Position numbers and translations under genes: made by a program
Notes under the pieces: generated by a model
What the model was told of the DNA's origin: nothing
Database searches by the model: none
Seen by the model: only the letters and a program-made list of their open reading frames with translations
Shown here: positions 13,059 to 31,470 of the stretch, one piece after another
How the letters are laid out: each line of letters opens with the position of its first letter
How positions within the stretch are numbered: the stretch's first letter is position 1
Origin: a virus
IMG/VR virus record: IMGVR_UViG_3300045988_073130
Coordinates: 64,069-96,068 of that record
DNA: 32,000 bases
Reading direction: 5' to 3' (one strand)

Positions 13059-13292
13059 ATGCAAGAAACTACTTTCTCTCGCAAATTAGATTCAAGTGGT
13101 AGAATTATGATTCCGATTCGCTTGCGTGAACAAATGGGACTTACTTCCGGTTAGGAATACTATTTTACTACTATGGTAAAAGATGGTAGAAAATATATCT
13201 GTATTGACTGCGGATCGGTTGATTCCTCGCTTGAAGAAGCTATGAAAATTATCCAAGCAAACGGATTAAAGATTGTTGAAAATGCCGATTGA
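13059..13292 (+). CDS. AbrB/SpoVT (MazE-like swapped-hairpin) DNA-binding protein with 1 in-frame TAG
   Basis: The N-terminus reads RKLDSSGRIMIPIRLREQMGLTSG-Q-EYYF, which matches the AbrB-type fold. TAG at 13152-13154 is in frame; TGA stop at 13290-13292. No clear SD. Confidence 0.55.
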
Positions 13293-13376: not shown

Positions 13377-13493
13377 CCGGCCGTGCACCACAGGCGCGGC
13401 CGGAATTTTTTATCAAGAGGCAATTTGCACAATTTTCCAGCCGAAATTTTGTGCAGTTTGCCTCTTGTTTTCTATCCCGAAATCTGATATACT
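13377..13493 (+). promoter_or_regulatory. Repeated regulatory cassette, copy B
   Basis: GC hairpin CCGGCCG/CGGCCGG (13377-13403) plus T-tract; TTGCACAA (13425-13432), N16, TTGTGCA (13449-13455); TTGTTT (13465), N17 containing TCCCGAAA, TATACT (13488). Confidence 0.6.
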
Positions 13494-14380: not shown

Positions 14381-14545
14381 ATATTTGTCAAGAGGGGAAG
14401 GCCAAGAAATCAAGAGGTCGCGAACTCTTAGAAAGTAAAGGAAGTAAATTTATATTGTGTCGTAAGTCGAGTGAACGCCGTTAGAATAGGCCGTTCTAAT
14501 GCCCAGTAGCTTGCAGTAAATCGCAATAAAAATTTCCTTTTCCTC

Positions 14546-16089: not shown

Positions 16090-16137
16090 ATAATCAAAGG
16101 ACAAGGACAGTCCTAAAAACCAGAAAGGATGTATATT

Positions 16138-16539
16138 ATGGACGAGAAGAAAATCCGCATTACTAAGGCCCAGCGTTTTGAAGACATTAAGGCCCTCTTG
16201 ACTGACGGCGAGGTAAAGTATGGCACTACCATCGAGGTGGCTATTACTATCATTGACCATGAGCTGGAGCTTCTGCGTAAGAAGAATAGCTCTAGCGGTG
16301 ACAAGAAGCTGACTCCCACCCAGCAGGAGAACGAGAATTTTAAGGAGCAGATTATGGAGTATCTGGCTGATCTGGATGCCGATACCGATGGCGTGACCTG
16401 CACGGAAATTTTTAAGGCTATTCCTGATCTGACGGCCTATTCTAACCAGAAGGTCGCCGCCCTTGTGCGGCAGTTGAAACTCGATGGTCGAGTGGTCTGC
16501 ACGGAAAAGAAGGGCAAGTCCCTTTTTAAGATGGCGTAA
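16138..16539 (+). CDS. Putative winged-helix DNA-binding protein (133 aa), paralog of 25927..26367
   Basis: ATG follows AAAGGA. It shares an architecture with 25927..26367: a helical N-terminal part containing HE[LV]ELL, then a C-terminal T..EI.KA......Q.V.A...QL segment. Confidence 0.5.
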   Translation: MDEKKIRITKAQRFEDIKALLTDGEVKYGTTIEVAITIIDHELELLRKKNSSSGDKKLTPTQQENENFKEQIMEYLADLDADTDGVTCTEIFKAIPDLTAYSNQKVAALVRQLKLDGRVVCTEKKGKSLFKMA

Positions 16540-17435: not shown

Positions 17436-17450
17436 ACGCAAAATTTTGGG

Positions 17451-17567
17451 CGGACCGCTTGCGTGCGCCGCGGTCCGATTTTTTCTTCTATTGTCATTTT
17501 CAACAATTTTGAATTGAAAATCTGTGCAACTTGACAGCTTGACTTTCTCCCAAAAATGTGGTATCAT
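17451..17567 (+). promoter_or_regulatory. Repeated regulatory cassette, copy E
   Basis: GC hairpin CGGACCGC/GCGGTCCG (17451-17477) plus TTTTTT; TTCAACAA (17499), N16, TGTGCAA (17523); TTGACT (17539), N17 containing TCTCCCAAAA, TATCAT (17562). Confidence 0.6.
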
Positions 17568-17593
17568 TTAACTATGGAAAGGAGATAAAAGAA

Positions 17594-18046
17594 ATGGAAA
17601 GTCTGAAACAATTTCGTGTTAATTTTCAAGTTACCTTTTGGTGTGAAGGTCGCAAGGGTATTTTCTCTAAGAAGCCTTATAAATTTACGGTATCATTTTG
17701 TGATGATATTATACTTTCTACCTTTTTAATCAATGCTCGAACCGAAAAAGAAGCGGTTAAAACGGGGAAAAACTATGTTGAAAATATAGTTCAATGTTGG
17801 GTTGAACAGTCAGAAGAAAATCAAGCCACAGGCGAATATATGATTTTAACTGGAAATATGGCTGATACAAAAAGATTTGAGTGGTCGCCTAAAATCTACG
17901 CCATTACCGGGTATGAAATTAAATTTATTTCTTGTGAAATGGTTTGCGACTGGGCAAAAGAAAGGGTCGAGAGAGCGGCAAGAGAACTGACTATGGAGCA
18001 ATTTAAGCAAGTTTTTAGTGAAATTCCGGCTGAGATTTTTCATTAA
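17594..18046 (+). CDS. Hypothetical protein (150 aa)
   Basis: ATG follows AAAGGAGA; the track start at 17558 overlaps the -10 element. TAA stop. Confidence 0.6.
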   Translation: MESLKQFRVNFQVTFWCEGRKGIFSKKPYKFTVSFCDDIILSTFLINARTEKEAVKTGKNYVENIVQCWVEQSEENQATGEYMILTGNMADTKRFEWSPKIYAITGYEIKFISCEMVCDWAKERVERAARELTMEQFKQVFSEIPAEIFH

Positions 18047-18063
18047 AGAAAGGAGATTTTTAG

Positions 18064-18315
18064 ATGGTTGATATTGATTTCAACAAACTGAATGACGAGG
18101 AGTTGCAATGGTTGAGTGCTACAGCCTATAAAGAAGTGGCACTTAGAAAACAAAAAGCGCGAGAGAAAGATTGGAATAGTCTAATCGAAGAGATAGACGA
18201 GTATTGTAAAAAGTATGGAGAAATAACTATCGTTGAATATGGAGATAAATTTGTTCTTGAATTTCCGATACGGTGTAACTGTATAGGAGAAATCAATTTA
18301 GAAAACGAGGATTAA
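18064..18315 (+). CDS. Hypothetical protein (83 aa)
   Basis: Track ORF; AAAGGAGA RBS; TAA stop followed by a terminator. Confidence 0.6.
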   Translation: MVDIDFNKLNDEELQWLSATAYKEVALRKQKAREKDWNSLIEEIDEYCKKYGEITIVEYGDKFVLEFPIRCNCIGEINLENED

Positions 18316-18317
18316 GA

Positions 18318-18344
18318 AAAGAGAGGCTTTGGCCTCTCTTTTTA
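18318..18344 (+). terminator. Rho-independent terminator
   Basis: AGAGAGGC-TTTG-GCCTCTCT followed by TTTTT. Confidence 0.75.
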
Positions 18345-18365
18345 TTTTATATTTTCTAAACTCGA

Positions 18366-18397
18366 CGGGCCGGTCGCGGGCGACTCGGCCCGAATTT
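18366..18397 (+). repeat. Sixth copy (F) of the GC-rich cassette hairpin, followed by different boxes
   Basis: CGGGCCG/CGGCCCG, with the same TCGACGG left flank as copy D. The downstream boxes are CATAGCGCAA, TCATAGCAA, CATAACGCAA instead of TTGCACAA. Confidence 0.55.
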
Positions 18398-19130
18398 CCC
18401 CGATCGGACCATAGCGCAAAATTTTCATAGCAACTTGGCCATAACGCAACTTCATAGCAATTTTCCCAAAATTCATAACGCCATCTTTCAAACACCGATC
18501 GGCCCTACTTTACTTCTTTCTTTATCTAGTTCCGATCGGTCCAGCAATATTGGCTCTCTCGTCCAATTTTTTATAATAAAAATCTTAAAATTGTCAAGTA
18601 TTCACAGTACCAAAACTTTCTAAAATACAACTAGCAATAGCAAAGATATAGCTATGAAAAACAAATACGACCAGAGATTTCTTTCGCGGAACCGATCGGT
18701 TTAACACGATTTTATGATAAAAAATAGCTCAAAAATAGAGATTTTAGCTAGATAAACCGATCGGCCCGCGATCTTTTACCTCTTGTTATCGCAAAATATA
18801 ACAAAAAACCTCTAAAATCTTGCAAAAATGCGCGTTTTTCTAACAAATTTACTTAAAAATAAGCAAAAAATGCCTCGTTTTTCTCAAAATTTCTTGATAT
18901 TCACAGAATTAAAACCATTAAAGATACAGCAAACAATAGTAAAGATGTTGCTAACTATTTGAAAAGGAAAAATCTTTTCCGCGGGATTCCGTTAAAGCGA
19001 TCTTTTTATCTAGACCCGATCGGTTCGACAATATATAAAAAATATAATATAATATATACATAAGATAAAGAAAAGGAGGATTTTAGTTTAAGAAGCATCA
19101 TAACGCTTTTTCTAACTAAAAGAACTTATT

Positions 19131-19586
19131 ATGAATAGTTATGAGATTATGATTCGTGATGCAATGCAGAATGGTTCTACTCAGGAGGAGATTGCAAAGG
19201 CATTTACTGATGCTATGAATAGAATCTCCGAGGCTAACGCCGCAGACCATGAACGAGATATTCTTCTGGATGAGATTGAGTCTACTTTTTATGGCAATGT
19301 TGATGATTTGTCTCTCACTGAGGATGACGTTGGTCGTGTAGCTGCGCTGGTTTATAGCAAGAGCAATCCTAAGTGGACAGCAAATGATATTAAGCAGTTT
19401 ATGCAGGCTATGACTGTAACTGCTAAGACTTCCGCTCGAGTAGTCAATGCAAAGAGTCTTGATGAAGTAATTGACATTGCTGTTGACTCTATTTCTGATG
19501 CTCTCGCAAAGAGTGTGCCTCAGGTTAAGGGTAATACTAAGTCTGATGAAGATAGTATTATGGAGTTTTTGAAGCATTTAAAGTAA
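19131..19586 (+). CDS. Hypothetical acidic protein (151 aa)
   Basis: Track ORF with a TAA stop and terminator, but a poor SD. The antisense ORF 19116..19577 is its shadow. Confidence 0.55.
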   Translation: MNSYEIMIRDAMQNGSTQEEIAKAFTDAMNRISEANAADHERDILLDEIESTFYGNVDDLSLTEDDVGRVAALVYSKSNPKWTANDIKQFMQAMTVTAKTSARVVNAKSLDEVIDIAVDSISDALAKSVPQVKGNTKSDEDSIMEFLKHLK

Positions 19587-19605
19587 CAAGAGGAAAAAGA
19601 TTAAA

Positions 19606-19640
19606 GGAGAGAGAAGTATTGTAGCTTCTCTCCTTTTTTA
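19606..19640 (+). terminator. Rho-independent terminator
   Basis: GAGAGAAG (19609-19616) pairs with CTTCTCTC (19625-19632), followed by TTTTTT. Confidence 0.7.
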
Positions 19641-19830
19641 TATATATTATAATCGCGGAAGGCTAGGTTTACGATCGTTGTGACGAGTGTTGTGATGGTT
19701 CGTACCTAGACCCGATCGGCACCCAACTCCATCATTTTATAAACTTCTTTTAATTTCCTTTAATTTCTTTCAATCTTCATATCTACATCTCTATCCAGTT
19801 CTATTTATCTCTCTTATCCTTCCAACCAAA

Positions 19831-19983
19831 TCATATTTTATCTCGATTTTTCAATTCGATTTCTCTAAAACCTTCTTCTAACTTTTCAATTCGTTTTTCT
19901 AAATCGGTTATAGAGTCCTCTAAATCTTGAGTAAAAACATCTATACTTATCTACTTCTTCCTTCTACCTTTAAATACTTCCAT
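19831..19983 (-). CDS. Small coiled-coil protein (50 aa) with 1 in-frame TAG
   Basis: ATG at 19983 follows GGAGGA. Translation MEVFKGRRKK-Q-ISIDVFTQDLEDSITDLEKRIEKLEEGF...; TGA stop at 19831-19833. Confidence 0.45.
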
Positions 19984-19999
19984 GCCTTAATCCTCCTAC

Positions 20000-20328
20000 T
20001 CATCGCTTTTTCACAAATACATAAAAAAGTCGCGACTGTTATCTTAACTCTGTTATCTAATATATGTTATATTTGTTGTATTGTCAGAATACCATGAAAT
20101 GGATTTTTATTTACTTTCATGGTATTGTCAGAATACTATGACATGGTATTGTTGGAAAGCTATGAAAATCCTTTTTATTTAATTTCATAGTATTATCAGA
20201 ATACCATGAAAACAATTTCATCGTTTTCCAACAAATACATGAAAATTTCATAGCTTTTTCACAATATGATGAAATCATAGTATTCTCAGAAATACATGAA
20301 ATTTTTCATAGTATTGCAGAAATACGAT
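20000..20328. repeat. Array of about nine 27-30 bp palindromic units
   Basis: Consensus TTTCATGGTATT-GTCAGA-ATACCATGAAA. Units start at about 20000, 20073, 20115, 20139, 20183, 20216, 20246, 20274 and 20304. Units 20115 and 20183 are near-perfect inverted repeats. No unique spacers lie between units. Confidence 0.75.
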
Positions 20329-20717
20329 TAAAAAGAAAATTTCTCTCCATCTGGAGCTATATAATTATACTTATCGTCGTCACTATCAATAGGAATCTCG
20401 TAAAAATCGTAATATCCTTTTCTCTCAACTGGAACTAAATATCCCTTTTTTACCAATCCATCTACTGCACTTGTATATTTCGCTCTCTTTATACCAAGCT
20501 CTTTTTCTATAATAGTAGGCCCAAAATCATAATCAGTTAACCTCTCAGATTGACTAGCAAAAAATATCCACAAAGAGAACTCTCCATCTGTCAACTCTCT
20601 ACGGGCCGCAAATAACGCTTCCTTATTAATCCTAGCATATATATTATTAGTATCACATGGTTCCTTATGAATATGATTAATAGTTCGCTAATTAGGACTT
20701 CTTCTTTTGTCTGCCAT
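20328..20717 (-). CDS. Winged-helix DNA-binding protein (129 aa), paralog of 30314..30814; 1 in-frame TAG
   Basis: ATG at 20717 follows GGAGGA; TAG at 20688-20690. It aligns by eye with 30314..30814: PNQR...I[HN]..H, [IY]FAS, KKGYL/DKGYL, YDFYE[IT]P. TAA stop at 20328-20330, abutting the palindrome array. Confidence 0.55.
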
Positions 20718-20913
20718 GGCAATCATCCTCCAATAGCGAACTTATCCCTTTATACTTCTAAACTGCATCCCTTAAATCCTAACTATCTTCAAAAAGATAA
20801 ACATTTAACCAAGGTTTCTAAACATTAGGAACAGTTCCAACAATAATAAAACCAAGATCACAAAGTTTGCGTGCTAACTTTACCGTAAAAACTTTATAAG
20901 TATCATTAGTCAT
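20692..20913 (-). CDS. DUF5659-like small protein (73 aa) with 3 in-frame TAG
   Basis: ATG at 20913 follows AAGGAGA. Translation MTNDTYKVFTVKLARKLCDLGF....VYLFEDS.DL. TAA stop at 20692-20694 overlaps the next gene. The family call is from memory only. Confidence 0.4.
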
Positions 20914-20928
20914 TTAGTTTAATCTCCT

Positions 20929-21072
20929 TTAGTCTATTTTATTTTTCTCAATATATTCTTTAACAGCCTTTCTAATTACCTAAGACATTGTTAAATCACA
21001 ACTCTTAGCAAAGACTTCCAAATCTTTCTTCTCTTCCTCTGTTAATCTAACAGAAACAGTGGAATAATTCAT
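20929..21072 (-). CDS. Ribbon-helix-helix (CopG/Arc-type) repressor (47 aa) with 1 in-frame TAG
   Basis: Translation MNYSTVSVRLTEEEKKDLEVFAKSCDLTMS-Q-VIRKAVKEYIEKN, the classic RHH pattern. GAGGTGA RBS. TAG at codon 31. Confidence 0.65.
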
Positions 21073-21125: not shown

Positions 21126-21265
21126 TGTCCTAAAATTTGTTAAACTTTTTTCTAAAATTATAAACAATAGAACAATCAATACATTAGAAAATTTTGGACA
21201 AGTCATTAGAAAAAATCGGACACTTTATTAGAAATTTTTGGACACTCGTTAGAAAATTTTGGACA
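21126..21265. promoter_or_regulatory. Operator array: four tandem TTAGAAAATTTTGGACA repeats plus one inverted copy
   Basis: Direct copies at 21184, 21206, 21228 and 21249 (spacing 22, 22, 21 bp). The inverted copy at 21126-21143 overlaps the -35 region of a minus-strand TGnTATAAT promoter upstream of the RHH gene. Confidence 0.65.
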
Positions 21266-21443
21266 AAAATACCTCTATGACCATTTTATTAAAATTACCG
21301 CGGAATTGTCAATTTCTCTGCCTAAAAAATTCCCGCATCCCCGCGAGAAATTATGACGGTTCGTTATAATCCATAAGATTTACTTGCGTATCTTAATAAA
21401 ATATGGTAATATATTTATATAAATAAGAAAAGAGGTTTTACTT

Positions 21444-25926: not shown

Positions 25927-26367
25927 ATGTCTAACACTGTAAAGAAGCCCACAAAGAAAGCCAATTATAATGCTATTTTGAGCATTTTGTCTGTCGCTGA
26001 GAACGAGGGTCTTGTCCTCGAGTCCAGTGAAATTACTTATGATAGTCTGCGCGAGTTCGTCGAGCACGAGGTCGAGTTGCTTGACAATAAGGCTGCTGCT
26101 GCCGCTAAGAGAGCTGCTGCTAAGAAGGTCGAGGGAGATGCTCTTCGCGAGAAGATTTATGAAGTCCTTGGTGATGAGCCTATGACTATCAATGATATTG
26201 TAAAGGCTTTGAACGACGAGGACATTTCTGCTCAGATGGTTACTGCTCGTCTAACCCAGCTTGCTTCTCCTGAGGTCAATCGTGTTGCTAAGGAGACCGT
26301 AAGTGTTCCTGCTTCCACTGAGGGTGGAAAGTCTAAGAAGCTCTCTGCTTACCGCAGAATTGGCTAA
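25927..26367 (+). CDS. Putative winged-helix DNA-binding protein (146 aa), paralog of 16138..16539
   Basis: Track ORF. Contains VEHEVELLDNK, an Ala/Lys-rich linker, and a C-terminal MTINDIVKAL...AQMVTARLTQL segment. Confidence 0.5.
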   Translation: MSNTVKKPTKKANYNAILSILSVAENEGLVLESSEITYDSLREFVEHEVELLDNKAAAAAKRAAAKKVEGDALREKIYEVLGDEPMTINDIVKALNDEDISAQMVTARLTQLASPEVNRVAKETVSVPASTEGGKSKKLSAYRRIG

Positions 26368-27437: not shown

Positions 27438-27502
27438 TTAGATTTTATTATTTTTATATATTATAATATTATTATAAAGATAATAAAAGGAGTGTTTCTA
27501 AA

Positions 27503-28216
27503 GTGAAATGGTCGGAAATTCTTCCTCAAGAGGCACTGGATTTAAGTGTTCAACTTGAAAATCATGCTTTAGAAGAGCGCTCTAAAGGAAAGATTTTATT
27601 TCCAGAATAGGATAAAATCTTTAGAGCGCTTAATCTTACGCATCCAGAAGATGTAAAAGTTTGTATTGTAGGACAAGACCCGTATCATACCCCAGGCGCA
27701 GCAAACGGGTTAGCATTTTCTATTTCTGATGGGAGCCCCATTCAACCATCTTTAAGAAATATTTTTAGCGAACTTAATAGCGATTTAGGGATTCCAATTC
27801 CGCAGTCTGGAGATTTAACATCTTGGGCAGAAAGAGGAGTATTGCTTCTTAATGCAAGTTTAACTGTCTATGAACATCAAGCCAATAGCTGCGTTAATTG
27901 GGGATGGAGTAGGTTTACGACAGCGGTGCTGAAAGCCGCAACCCAGTTGGCACAACCTATTGTTTTTATGCTGTGGGGAGCTAATGCTCAAAATTTATTA
28001 AAAGATTTAAATTCTAGTCCTATGGTATGGGATGGACCTGGAGTTGCCAGAGAGAATTTAATTAAGAAGGCTTATATTTTATCTTCCCATCCAAGTCCTT
28101 TTAGTGTAAGTAAACCATGCAAAGGAACTCCTGCGTTTAAAGGTAGTAAACCGTTTTCAACAGCAAATAATTTACTGCTTTCTATGGGTGGAGAACCGAT
28201 TGATTGGAGTTTATAA
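27503..28216 (+). CDS. ung: Uracil-DNA glycosylase (family 1) with 1 in-frame TAG
   Basis: GTG follows AAAGGAG. Motifs seen: VKVCIVGQDPYH, GLAFS, LLLNASLTV, SSHPSPFS. TAG at 27608-27610 (codon 36) aligns with the Gln in the E. coli Ung segment IYPPQKDVF, as I recall that sequence. Confidence 0.85.
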
Positions 28217-30824: not shown

Positions 30825-31037
30825 ATGTCCAAGAGTAAGAAAATGACCATTGAAGAAATGGTCAATTGTTTCCGCATTATGTTCAGTTAGGCAGTTGCAG
30901 AGCGTTCCCAAGACTACGGTGTTGTGATGGAAGAAGCGTATAACCTTTGGGCGCTGCTGTATTATGACCTTGGTATTGAATACCCACCCTACGACCTACC
31001 GCAGGGACACAGCAAAAATGAACCTTTCGTTTTTTGA
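30825..31037 (+). CDS. Hypothetical protein (70 aa) with 1 in-frame TAG
   Basis: ATG follows AAGGAGA. TAG at codon 22 (MFS-Q-AVAERS). TGA stop at 31035-31037. Confidence 0.45.
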
Positions 31038-31470
31038 GCAGCGGATTTATCAATCCTTAAAGCGCAAAGGGCTAGCACCGCAATTCGAGCGGGCGGGCAT
31101 TTACGCTATCCTGTTGGACGGAAAGACTGTCTATATCGGAAAAAGCGTCAATATGCTCGCGCGCATGGCGCAGCACTATGCGTAGCTCTCCCGTCCAAAA
31201 GCACACAAATATGAAATACTGGCGGAAGCATCGCGGCGCGGCCATCGCATACGCTTTTGCGTTCTGTATGCCGCTCGCAGCACGACGCCCGCCGCAATTG
31301 AAGAAGAAATAGGCGAGAAAGAGGGCGAGTTCATCCGCCGCCATCTCCCGCCGCTCAATTATCAGATTCCAAAGGTGGAAAACTGGCGATAGTTCACCAC
31401 CAATCCCGCCGCACTCACAATTACATTAGGAGAAATTATAAAGGAGCATTACGATGACTCAAAACTATAA
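31018..31470 (+). CDS. GIY-YIG nuclease-domain protein (150 aa) with 2 in-frame TAG
   Basis: Contains AGIYAILLDGKTVYIGKSVNMLARMAQH, i.e. GIY..(10)..YIG then R..H. TAGs at 31183 and 31390. TAA stop at 31468-31470. The second TAG could alternatively be the real end. Confidence 0.5.

Follow-up and report, generated by a model that had tools for sequence, protein, structure and literature searches.

The DNA analysed here is a stretch of 32,000 nucleotides from a virus (IMG/VR virus record IMGVR_UViG_3300045988_073130, positions 64,069 to 96,068 of that record), hereafter the window, and its early region holds seven copies of the 8-bp palindrome CCGATCGG within about 1.3 kb. These copies, with a probability that we put at roughly one in two, are operators of the form CCGRYCGG for a symmetric dimeric regulator, and they lie in an early control module at 18366-19720. 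The putative regulator is probably a repressor and probably encoded by the phage itself. Operators at phage early promoters are an already known kind of element. The motif, its sharp form, the arrangement of the 1.35-kb module and the retention of the sites through the purging of GATC appear undescribed, and a full-text literature search for CCGATCGG returned primers and unrelated uses only.

An exact search of the window found CCGATCGG at 8794, 18400, 18495, 18532, 18692, 18757, 19016 and 19712, which bears out every position given in the original prediction, an earlier reading of these letters that had described seven clustered palindromes and a single outside copy at 8794. The clustered copies are called S1 to S7 from left to right. 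Eight copies compare with 0.13 expected from dinucleotide-preserving shuffles, none of 100 shuffles reached eight, and seven of the eight fall inside 18400-19719, so that nothing like this density was found elsewhere in the 32 kb. The form of the motif is sharp, as permitting one mismatch added two sites only (10 in total against 4.7 expected), and all but one of the CGATCG in the window lie within the 8-mer, while GATC as a whole is twofold under-represented. The CTAG reported 2-5 nt upstream of four copies is likewise present (18532, 18757, 19016 and 19712). The eighth copy (8794-8801) is intragenic, in a microbial-type PARG/macro-fold gene at 8529-9359 (PF10021), which agrees with the macrodomain gene originally named. 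It is conserved in the related loci L126 (537), L132 (962) and L137 (2419), and a different conserved intragenic CCGATCGG copy, in another gene, occurs in L142 and L148.

The motif is degenerate in a symmetric manner. At orthologous positions some lineages carry CCGACCGG or CCGGTCGG, occasionally CCGGCCGG, and a single locus often combines such forms with CCGATCGG, in either orientation. Since the RY variants are interchangeable in both orientations, the functional consensus is CCGRYCGG, composed of two CCGR half-sites, a symmetric degeneracy as expected of a dimeric protein that would read CCGR half-sites. Loci were regarded as GATC-purged when the observed/expected ratio of GATC, with the sites masked, was below 0.2. 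The purged loci contain 24 CCGATCGG and 48 GATC-free variants, against 358 and 29 in the other loci (ratio of at least 0.2), an odds ratio of 0.04 with a p of 5e-27 that is nominal, the lineages not being independent. In L151 the single GATC in 19 kb (57 expected) is site S7 (position 14506), the other sites having become CCGACCGG or CCGGTCGG, and in L176 the 3 GATCs in 6.2 kb (2682, 2909 and 3614) are all CCGATCGG sites. At the level of sequence, this shows strong purifying selection on the sites, which are kept when GATC is purged, or changed only at the central RY step; S7 seems more constrained than the others.

The cluster is also conserved in its place. The marker used for collecting relatives was the winged-helix protein of the early operon (16129-16539), and 36 loci with a marker identity of 29-99% were fetched. 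Most of them carry 4-8 CCGATCGG where 0.06-0.23 would be expected, in a cluster that begins or lies 1.3-5 kb from the marker on its downstream side, and the clusters stand at the same place where the marker is only 29-54% identical and the GC content is 38-49%. Three close relatives keep all seven sites, with the non-coding block about 99% identical and the adjacent gene about 90%. In L130 and L131 the adjacent protein is 46% identical and the non-coding DNA still about 80%, and the six sites upstream of the small gene are all exact in L130. The module thus persists across relatives in which the neighbouring proteins are only 29-46% identical, and it recurs in a large clade of uncultured, mostly human-gut, TAG-recoded phages of Bacillota, whose contigs (98-147 kb) come largely from human-gut metagenomes. 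Of 111 distinct modules, 46 have CCGATCGG as their first site, 9 have CCGACCGG and 6 have CCGCCCGG. Promoters and ribosome-binding sites are of Bacillota type. Only TerL places the phage among cultured relatives: it shares about 50% identity with the TerL of large Enterococcus phages (VRE9_4, H1, EF1) and Geobacillus E3, and SPbeta-like phages are more distant. DNA searches against GenBank phages gave no match, and the small protein of the module and the winged-helix family have none in cultured phages. A scan of viral contigs for pairs of palindromes was swamped by chance matches in high-GC sequence; it yielded L057, L123 and the terminator-like pairs described below.

The sites are linked to transcription by their register with promoters. 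Among 770 site-strand instances, all in low-GC related loci, 38 have a strong sigma-A-type promoter with its -35 hexamer beginning 0-5 nt past the site. The distance is exactly 1 nt in 23 of these and 4 nt in 10, and such promoters are about 9-fold more frequent here than at control positions (0.53%). Leftward and rightward promoters within one locus can both show a -35 that abuts a site. In the window, S6 and the promoter P2 read CCGATCGG-T-TCGACA-17-TATAAT, with the site centred at about -40.5, and this register recurs in L130, L134, L139, L142 and many metagenome loci. Other sites lie in the promoter spacer. The consensus promoter P0 (TTGACA-17-tgGTATAAT), which in many relatives stands directly before the GC-rich hairpin at the left of the module, takes the form TTGACA-CCGATCGG-N9-TATAAT in L195, L199, L245 and L290, and L198 has CCGACCGG at this place. 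In L057, TTGACA-N6-CCGATCGG-N3-TATAAT is found upstream of a paralog of the winged-helix marker. The position of the sites relative to the -35 and -10 elements is fixed, with spacer-embedded cases in two further lineage groups.

We infer that a protein binds the sites, and we likewise offer candidates for the binder and for the sign of the regulation. Two features favour repression, namely the near-consensus promoters and the presence of some sites within spacers. A bound dimer would occlude sigma region 4, the alpha subunit or the spacer and so turn the module promoters off, a step proposed because sites are found 1 or 4 nt upstream of the -35, in spacers, or just past the promoter-proximal hairpin. 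It is less likely that a dimer at about -41 activates the promoters in class II fashion. With multiple sites, and with S1 and S7 bracketing the unit, binding might be cooperative or looped over the whole 1.3 kb. Regulators whose genes hold an in-frame TAG would be made at full length only after the TAG-to-Gln recoding switch, on which they appear to depend, and could act as a timer for late shut-off of the early unit; we infer this recoding-timed step. An in-frame TAG is present in the AbrB/MazE-like gene and in each of the four small leftward genes at 19831-21072. The candidate binders in the window, every one of them with such a codon, are as follows.

13059-13292, plus strand: AbrB/MazE-like protein, in an otherwise standard-code early operon, with one in-frame TAG
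16129-16539 and 25927-26367: winged-helix family
20929-21072, minus strand: ribbon-helix-helix (RHH) protein (PF01402/DUF6290), a less likely candidate

Of the 13 site-rich lineages 9 have an AbrB-like gene, and none of the 7 site-poor lineages has one, a weak hint for the AbrB-like protein as the binder. The leftward operon of small genes encodes, besides the RHH protein, a DUF5659-like protein (20692-20913), a winged-helix protein resembling HTH_36 (20328-20717) and a 50-aa coiled-coil protein (19831-19983). The stretch 21177-21263, between leftward promoters at 21312 to 21283 and 21131 to 21103 and upstream of the RHH gene, holds four 22-nt repeats in tandem (..ATTAGAAAATTTTGGACA), likely the RHH protein's own operators.

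Several points weigh against operators of a dimeric regulator. The phyletic signal of the AbrB-like genes rests on 1-2 independent losses and on 20-kb loci only, and the proteins named above are putative binders. S1-S5 and S7 abut no recognisable promoter, and occlusion would account for some of the sites only. Solitary 8-bp sites are short for a typical bacterial operator, and all seven clustered copies, like the great majority in GATC-tolerant relatives, are exact, which is unusual for transcription-factor sites. Promoters of P2 type are near consensus, which makes activation unnecessary and leaves repression an assumption. Finally, palindromes of other sequence in sister lineages (GCCCGGGC in L166; GGCGCGCC in L148 and L151) could indicate that GC palindromes have a structural role and not one specific to a protein.

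In the window the module runs, over about 1.35 kb, from a GC hairpin through CATATG-type boxes and several strong promoters of the sigma-A type, for the host RNA polymerase, to the gene of a small acidic protein, a terminator and the last site. Its parts are listed below with the terminator and the tract that border it.

18316-18343, no strand: bidirectional intrinsic terminator, a 12-bp stem then a T-run; an A-run at its left allows leftward use
18366-18392, plus strand: GC-rich hairpin CGGGCCG-GTCG-CGGG-CGAC-T-CGGCCCG, with structural covariation
18400-18407, no strand: site S1, an exact match to CCGATCGG
18410-18481, no strand: five CATAGC/CATAAC boxes, the local form of the relatives' (C)CATATGC-AAAATTTT boxes
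18495-18502, no strand: site S2, exact CCGATCGG
18532-18539, no strand: site S3, exact CCGATCGG, preceded by TTTATCTAG
18550-18597, no strand: overlapping face-to-face promoters, rightward TTGGCT-16-TATAAT (18550-18577) and leftward TTGACA-16-TATAAA (18597 to 18570)
18583-18654, plus strand: copy 1 of a 72-nt diverged direct repeat, a lineage-specific filling of the module
18692-18699, no strand: site S4, inside the 12-bp palindrome AACCGATCGGTT
18757-18764, no strand: site S5, exact CCGATCGG, preceded by TTTAGCTAGATAAA
18882-18953, plus strand: copy 2 of the 72-nt direct repeat, 71% identical to copy 1
19016-19023, no strand: site S6, covering about -44 to -37 of P2 and parted from its -35 hexamer by 1 nt
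19025-19053, plus strand: promoter P2, TCGACA-17-TATAAT, 11 of 12 consensus matches
19073-19080, plus strand: orphan Shine-Dalgarno sequence AAAGGAGG in the P2 leader, with no usable start codon
19131-19586, plus strand: gene of the small acidic all-helical protein (151 aa, isoelectric point 4.5), the only gene of the module
19609-19632, no strand: bidirectional terminator past the small gene
19660-19700, plus strand: diverged form of the short GATAACG-type repeats found before the last site in relatives
19712-19719, no strand: site S7, the most constrained site, with conserved flanks CTAG-N2-3-CCGATCGG-(G)CACC..CAC
19720-19850, plus strand: G-poor stretch with short phased repeats, 3 G in 141 nt, strand-asymmetric

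Across the clade the same order is recognised. It begins, often after P0, with the GC hairpin and an A/T-TTT tail followed by S1, then the (C)CATATGC-AAAATTTT boxes with the motif TTTCCCGAAA, and S2 with a CATATG box. AT-rich promoters with sites follow, then a site abutting the -35 of P2, the small acidic gene with its terminator, GATAACG-type repeats, and S7 with the G-poor tract. The terminator at 18316-18343 closes the upstream rightward early operon and is the left boundary of the module. The hairpin next to it is a genuine structural element: over 11 lineages 89% of cells are paired, five pairs show compensatory changes, and none of 500 shuffles equalled this. Homology of the window with L002 and L126 begins at the hairpin (18366), and S1 always lies 3-7 nt past its A/T-TTT tail. 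The CATAGC/CATAAC boxes had been noticed originally; their stretch includes TTTTCCCAAAATT, the counterpart of TTTCCCGAAA, and CATATG boxes stand 3-9 nt past sites in nearly all lineages. S3 is missing in L128 through a 10-nt deletion. The diverged relative L130 retains P2, which is identical in close relatives, and keeps only the leftward -35 of the face-to-face promoters. The -35 region of P2 (19025-19031) reads TTCGACA, the reverse complement of the Spo0A box TGTCGAA, possibly a coincidence given its similarity to TTGACA. The diverged direct repeat, first given as about 65 nt, holds at 72 nt, and folding gave no RNA structure signal in its units (z +0.2 to +1.5). The G-poor tract after S7 varies between relatives, and many assemblies break there; the independent assemblies L127, L128 and L129 stop at window 19752-19756, and like tracts occur at the ends of L148, L150 and L157.

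The stretch described as free of ORFs (open reading frames) proved to be so, with its length corrected from 730 to about 790-815 bp, from the terminator at 18316-18343 to 19130. The mechanical ORFs in it, 18298-18495 (minus strand, 65 aa), 18435-18623 (plus strand, 62 aa) and a frame at 18479-18856 with TAG as sense, are interrupted in relatives by indels of 1, 10, 11, 14 and 19 nt. Coding potential of the site region is rejected on account of these frame-breaking indels, and the stretch between the terminator and the ATG at 19131 is non-coding; no sign was found that relatives translate it. The Shine-Dalgarno sequence in the P2 leader is an orphan, as reported, since an in-frame TAA (19113-19115) parts it from the ATG at 19131. 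In other lineages the equivalent sequence stands immediately before an ATG. No tRNA was found in the window, and no Rfam family reached its gathering threshold, permissive E-values giving noise only.

The small acidic gene is driven by P2 and monocistronic between this promoter and the terminator, and its operon contains no helix-turn-helix (HTH) repressor gene of the Aca kind. The protein is homologous across all lineages and belongs to a family of 2147 unnamed members. For the protein of L123, a direct phmmer comparison with that of the window was unsupportive, and homology was established through a chain of intermediates. Sequence searches of Pfam, PHROGs and PDB gave no match, a search with AlphaFold2 and Foldseek gave no fold match, and no resemblance to a known anti-restriction fold or anti-defence family was seen.

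Several features of the surrounding DNA are recorded here. A two-gene cassette (17558-18046 and 18064-18315; window 17483-18365) is missing in L126, L127 and L002, and its junctions coincide with GC-rich hairpins after terminators (17449-17482 and 18366-18392). This gain and loss resembles, by analogy, the modular shuffling of early genes in PeSL (promoter and stem-loop) cassettes. A further indel of about 1.6 kb lies at about 13422-13455. The leftward late genes at 1-6852 (minus strand; portal, TerL and others) are open only with TAG as sense. Early and middle genes (7403-9769, 27467-28216 and 30928-31470, all on the plus strand) include a FolD-like domain (PF02882), PARG and the peptidyl-tRNA hydrolase PTH2; a uracil-DNA glycosylase-like protein and a GIY-YIG-like ORF are also present, assigned by eye from the translation. 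Sister lineages show palindromes of their own. In L166 another GC-rich 8-bp palindrome, GCCCGGGC, occurs 14 times in 13 kb (0.26 expected), in nearly every terminator-to-promoter spacer, and in L148 (7643, 9618 and 14481) and L151 (246-270 and 4177) GGCGCGCC is found as hairpin pairs with an 8-bp stem right after the -10 of early promoters.

A replication origin, conventional or primed by transcription, was among the roles first proposed, and for the module it appears unlikely. The CCGRYCGG sites and CATATG boxes would bind an initiator, and strong promoters in tandem without an ORF would give primer or activating transcripts; the T7 primary origin and T4 oriF are models for such an origin. 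The block is indeed non-coding, highly conserved and rich in repeats, with AT-rich stretches, some relatives (L158) have successive consensus promoters without an ORF, and the GC skew is flat at the module with regions of opposite skew on either side. The changes of skew, however, follow switches of gene strand, solitary 8-bp palindromes in a fixed -35 register are not a feature of origins, and no replication gene lies within the conserved module. An iteron array beside an initiator gene, moreover, is not seen at the 8-bp sites; it is found about 350 bp rightward, where at least eight copies of a palindromic iteron of about 29 nt (TTTCATGGTATTGTCAGAATACCATGAAA) at 20071-20333 directly adjoin the 3' side of the HTH_36-like ORF 20328-20717 (minus strand). 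These iterons share the half-site TTCATAG(C/T) with the CATAGC boxes, a point in favour of the module, but they are the better candidate for a replication origin or an operator array. Two related contigs end within the array.

The module as a whole might instead be a clade-wide cis-acting landmark of a kind not described before, made up of the hairpin, sites, boxes, ORF-less promoters, acidic protein, and S7 with the G-poor tract, and not a simple operator array; we regard this as an outside chance. Such a landmark might control genome entry or be the first region transcribed, or it might be an origin primed by transcription; either way, a dedicated protein would have the palindromes as its loading or stop signals, and the acidic protein would be the first anti-host product. 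Because genomes that otherwise lack GATC retain it at these sites only, it is suggested that they are indispensable and physically protected during infection.

A further proposal, which we hold to be quite improbable, is a DNA-processing locus near a physical or functional landmark of the genome. It might load the terminase (a pac site), serve as a centromere in partition, or control injection or first entry, and the small acidic protein would then be the earliest product against host defence. The T7 left end and the T5 first-step-transfer region are models of entry control. The order of strong host-type promoters in tandem and then a small acidic protein recalls the T7 A1-A3/ocr layout, but the small protein is unlike any known anti-restriction fold. 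In sixteen of the 36 related loci the contig breaks off 2-9 kb downstream of the marker, several independent assemblies stop just past S7, and S7 itself has extended conserved flanks beside the G-poor repeat tract. Contig ends were considered as genome termini and set aside: the enrichment is real, but the ends are scattered over many positions, inside tandem or low-complexity repeats, as assembly breaks would be. Two relatives, of about 105 and 146 kb, have the module in their interior. Neither ParB nor a terminase is encoded nearby, TerL being 14 kb off on the other strand. The motif has 8 bp and is not a 16-bp parS-like site, and no ParB domain was seen among about 35 window proteins scanned, a subset of its ORFs. 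For a pac or partition site, as originally suggested, direct evidence was not found.

It is equally doubtful that the copies act as nucleic acid, the self-complementary 8-mers pairing in a transcript or in single-stranded DNA as 8-bp GC-rich stems that could make terminators, processing sites or hairpins of long range. Two copies stand 17-18 nt apart, with a T-run after them, in unrelated low-GC phages from the same metagenome (L035, L059 and L099), and window segments with two sites fold site to site (z -1.7 and -2.1), but no T-run follows the site pairs of the window. These terminator-like CCGATCGG pairs lie at L035 3131-3164, L059 42-74, L099 4644-4677 and L050 12034-12067, and their flank CCGATCGGCACC resembles that of S7. 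Sister lineages form true hairpins from other GC palindromes, and complementary partners are found in L151, L187 and L262 (CCGACCGG with CCGGTCGG) and in the L150 clade (CCGCTCGG with CCGAGCGG). On the other side, L194, L213 and L250 carry the non-complementary CCGACCGG in the same orientation at both S1 and S2, so that RNA pairing of S1 with S2, hinted at by some lineages, is contradicted by others and was rejected. The site sequence is invariant across lineages, whereas the neighbouring true hairpin drifts with compensatory changes, and many sites are upstream of promoters and hence untranscribed from them.

A target or decoy for restriction-modification or methylation at CGATCG or GATC, the last of the roles first put forward, is highly improbable: although CGATCG is a classic restriction-modification motif and the window is short of GATC, GATC-free genomes have CCGACCGG or CCGGTCGG, with neither sequence, at orthologous sites, which by comparison of lineages excludes methylation or restriction at these sequences as the conserved function; the sites are clustered and not genome-wide, a harmful target would be purged and not kept as the sole GATC, and no methyltransferase was seen among the window proteins scanned. 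The degenerate CGRYCG, a known specificity (BsiEI), is still present in the variant sites and is compatible with the sequence data. Of what was proposed at first, then, a loading site for a sequence-specific protein fits best, in view of the symmetric motif, the selection on it and its promoter register.

The motif and the module together give a recognisable regulatory landmark for a widespread clade of uncultured, TAG-recoding human-gut phages of about 100-150 kb, in whose early region nothing has been annotated, and the pattern can anchor annotation of these phages, with the adjacent candidate origin at 20071-20333 flagged. If the sites are operators of a regulator whose gene contains TAG, the recoding switch would be tied to the shut-off of early genes, a link that can be tested. 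The purging of GATC, in addition, reveals selection on a cis-element from sequence alone, with restriction avoidance traded against regulatory constraint.

Among known systems, the PeSL cassettes of T4-like phages (the work of Arbiol et al., 2010) reportedly consist of a promoter and a stem-loop flanking shuffled early genes. The module likewise has a promoter and a GC hairpin at early-cassette boundaries, with precise gain and loss there (17483-18365 absent in L126 and L002), but the likeness concerns the hairpin and P0, not the CCGRYCGG sites, which are confined to one module in this lineage. The pac site of P1 consists of seven Dam-methylated TGATCA/G hexamers, and the cyanobacterial HIP1 is GCGATCGC. 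As in these, a short GATC-containing palindrome occurs about seven times in a non-coding or regulatory stretch; unlike them, the module has functional variants without GATC and forms one cluster, not a genome-wide set, extending over 1.3 kb against 160 bp and outside the terminase gene.

Other systems are closer to operators. Class II activators and lambda cI at OR2 bind near -41, similar to the S6-type sites centred at about -40.5 and abutting the -35. The module promoters are, however, already near consensus, the spacing is 0, 1, 2 or 4 nt, and some sites are in the spacer, which fits repression better. The met-boxes of MetJ are 8-bp palindromes (AGACGTCT) read by an RHH dimer, and antitoxins of the AbrB/MazE type have palindromic operators. 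An 8-bp palindrome is the recognition unit proposed here as well, and the window encodes RHH and AbrB-like proteins. Met-boxes are tandem and adjacent, unlike the module sites, which are solitary or tens of bp apart, and the RHH protein of the window likely has its own operators at 21177-21263. In the acr-aca system, the acr promoter is said to be controlled by the Aca repressor at inverted repeats flanking the -35 and -10 elements (the work of Stanley et al., 2019). The operon of the module differs in having no HTH repressor gene, its 8-bp sites are solitary, 6-7 of them over 1.3 kb of non-coding DNA, and its small protein matches no known anti-defence family. In common with acr-aca it has a very strong promoter, palindromes on or beside the -35 and spacer, and a small acidic early protein, and the logic proposed here, a burst of early expression that would then be shut off, is the same.

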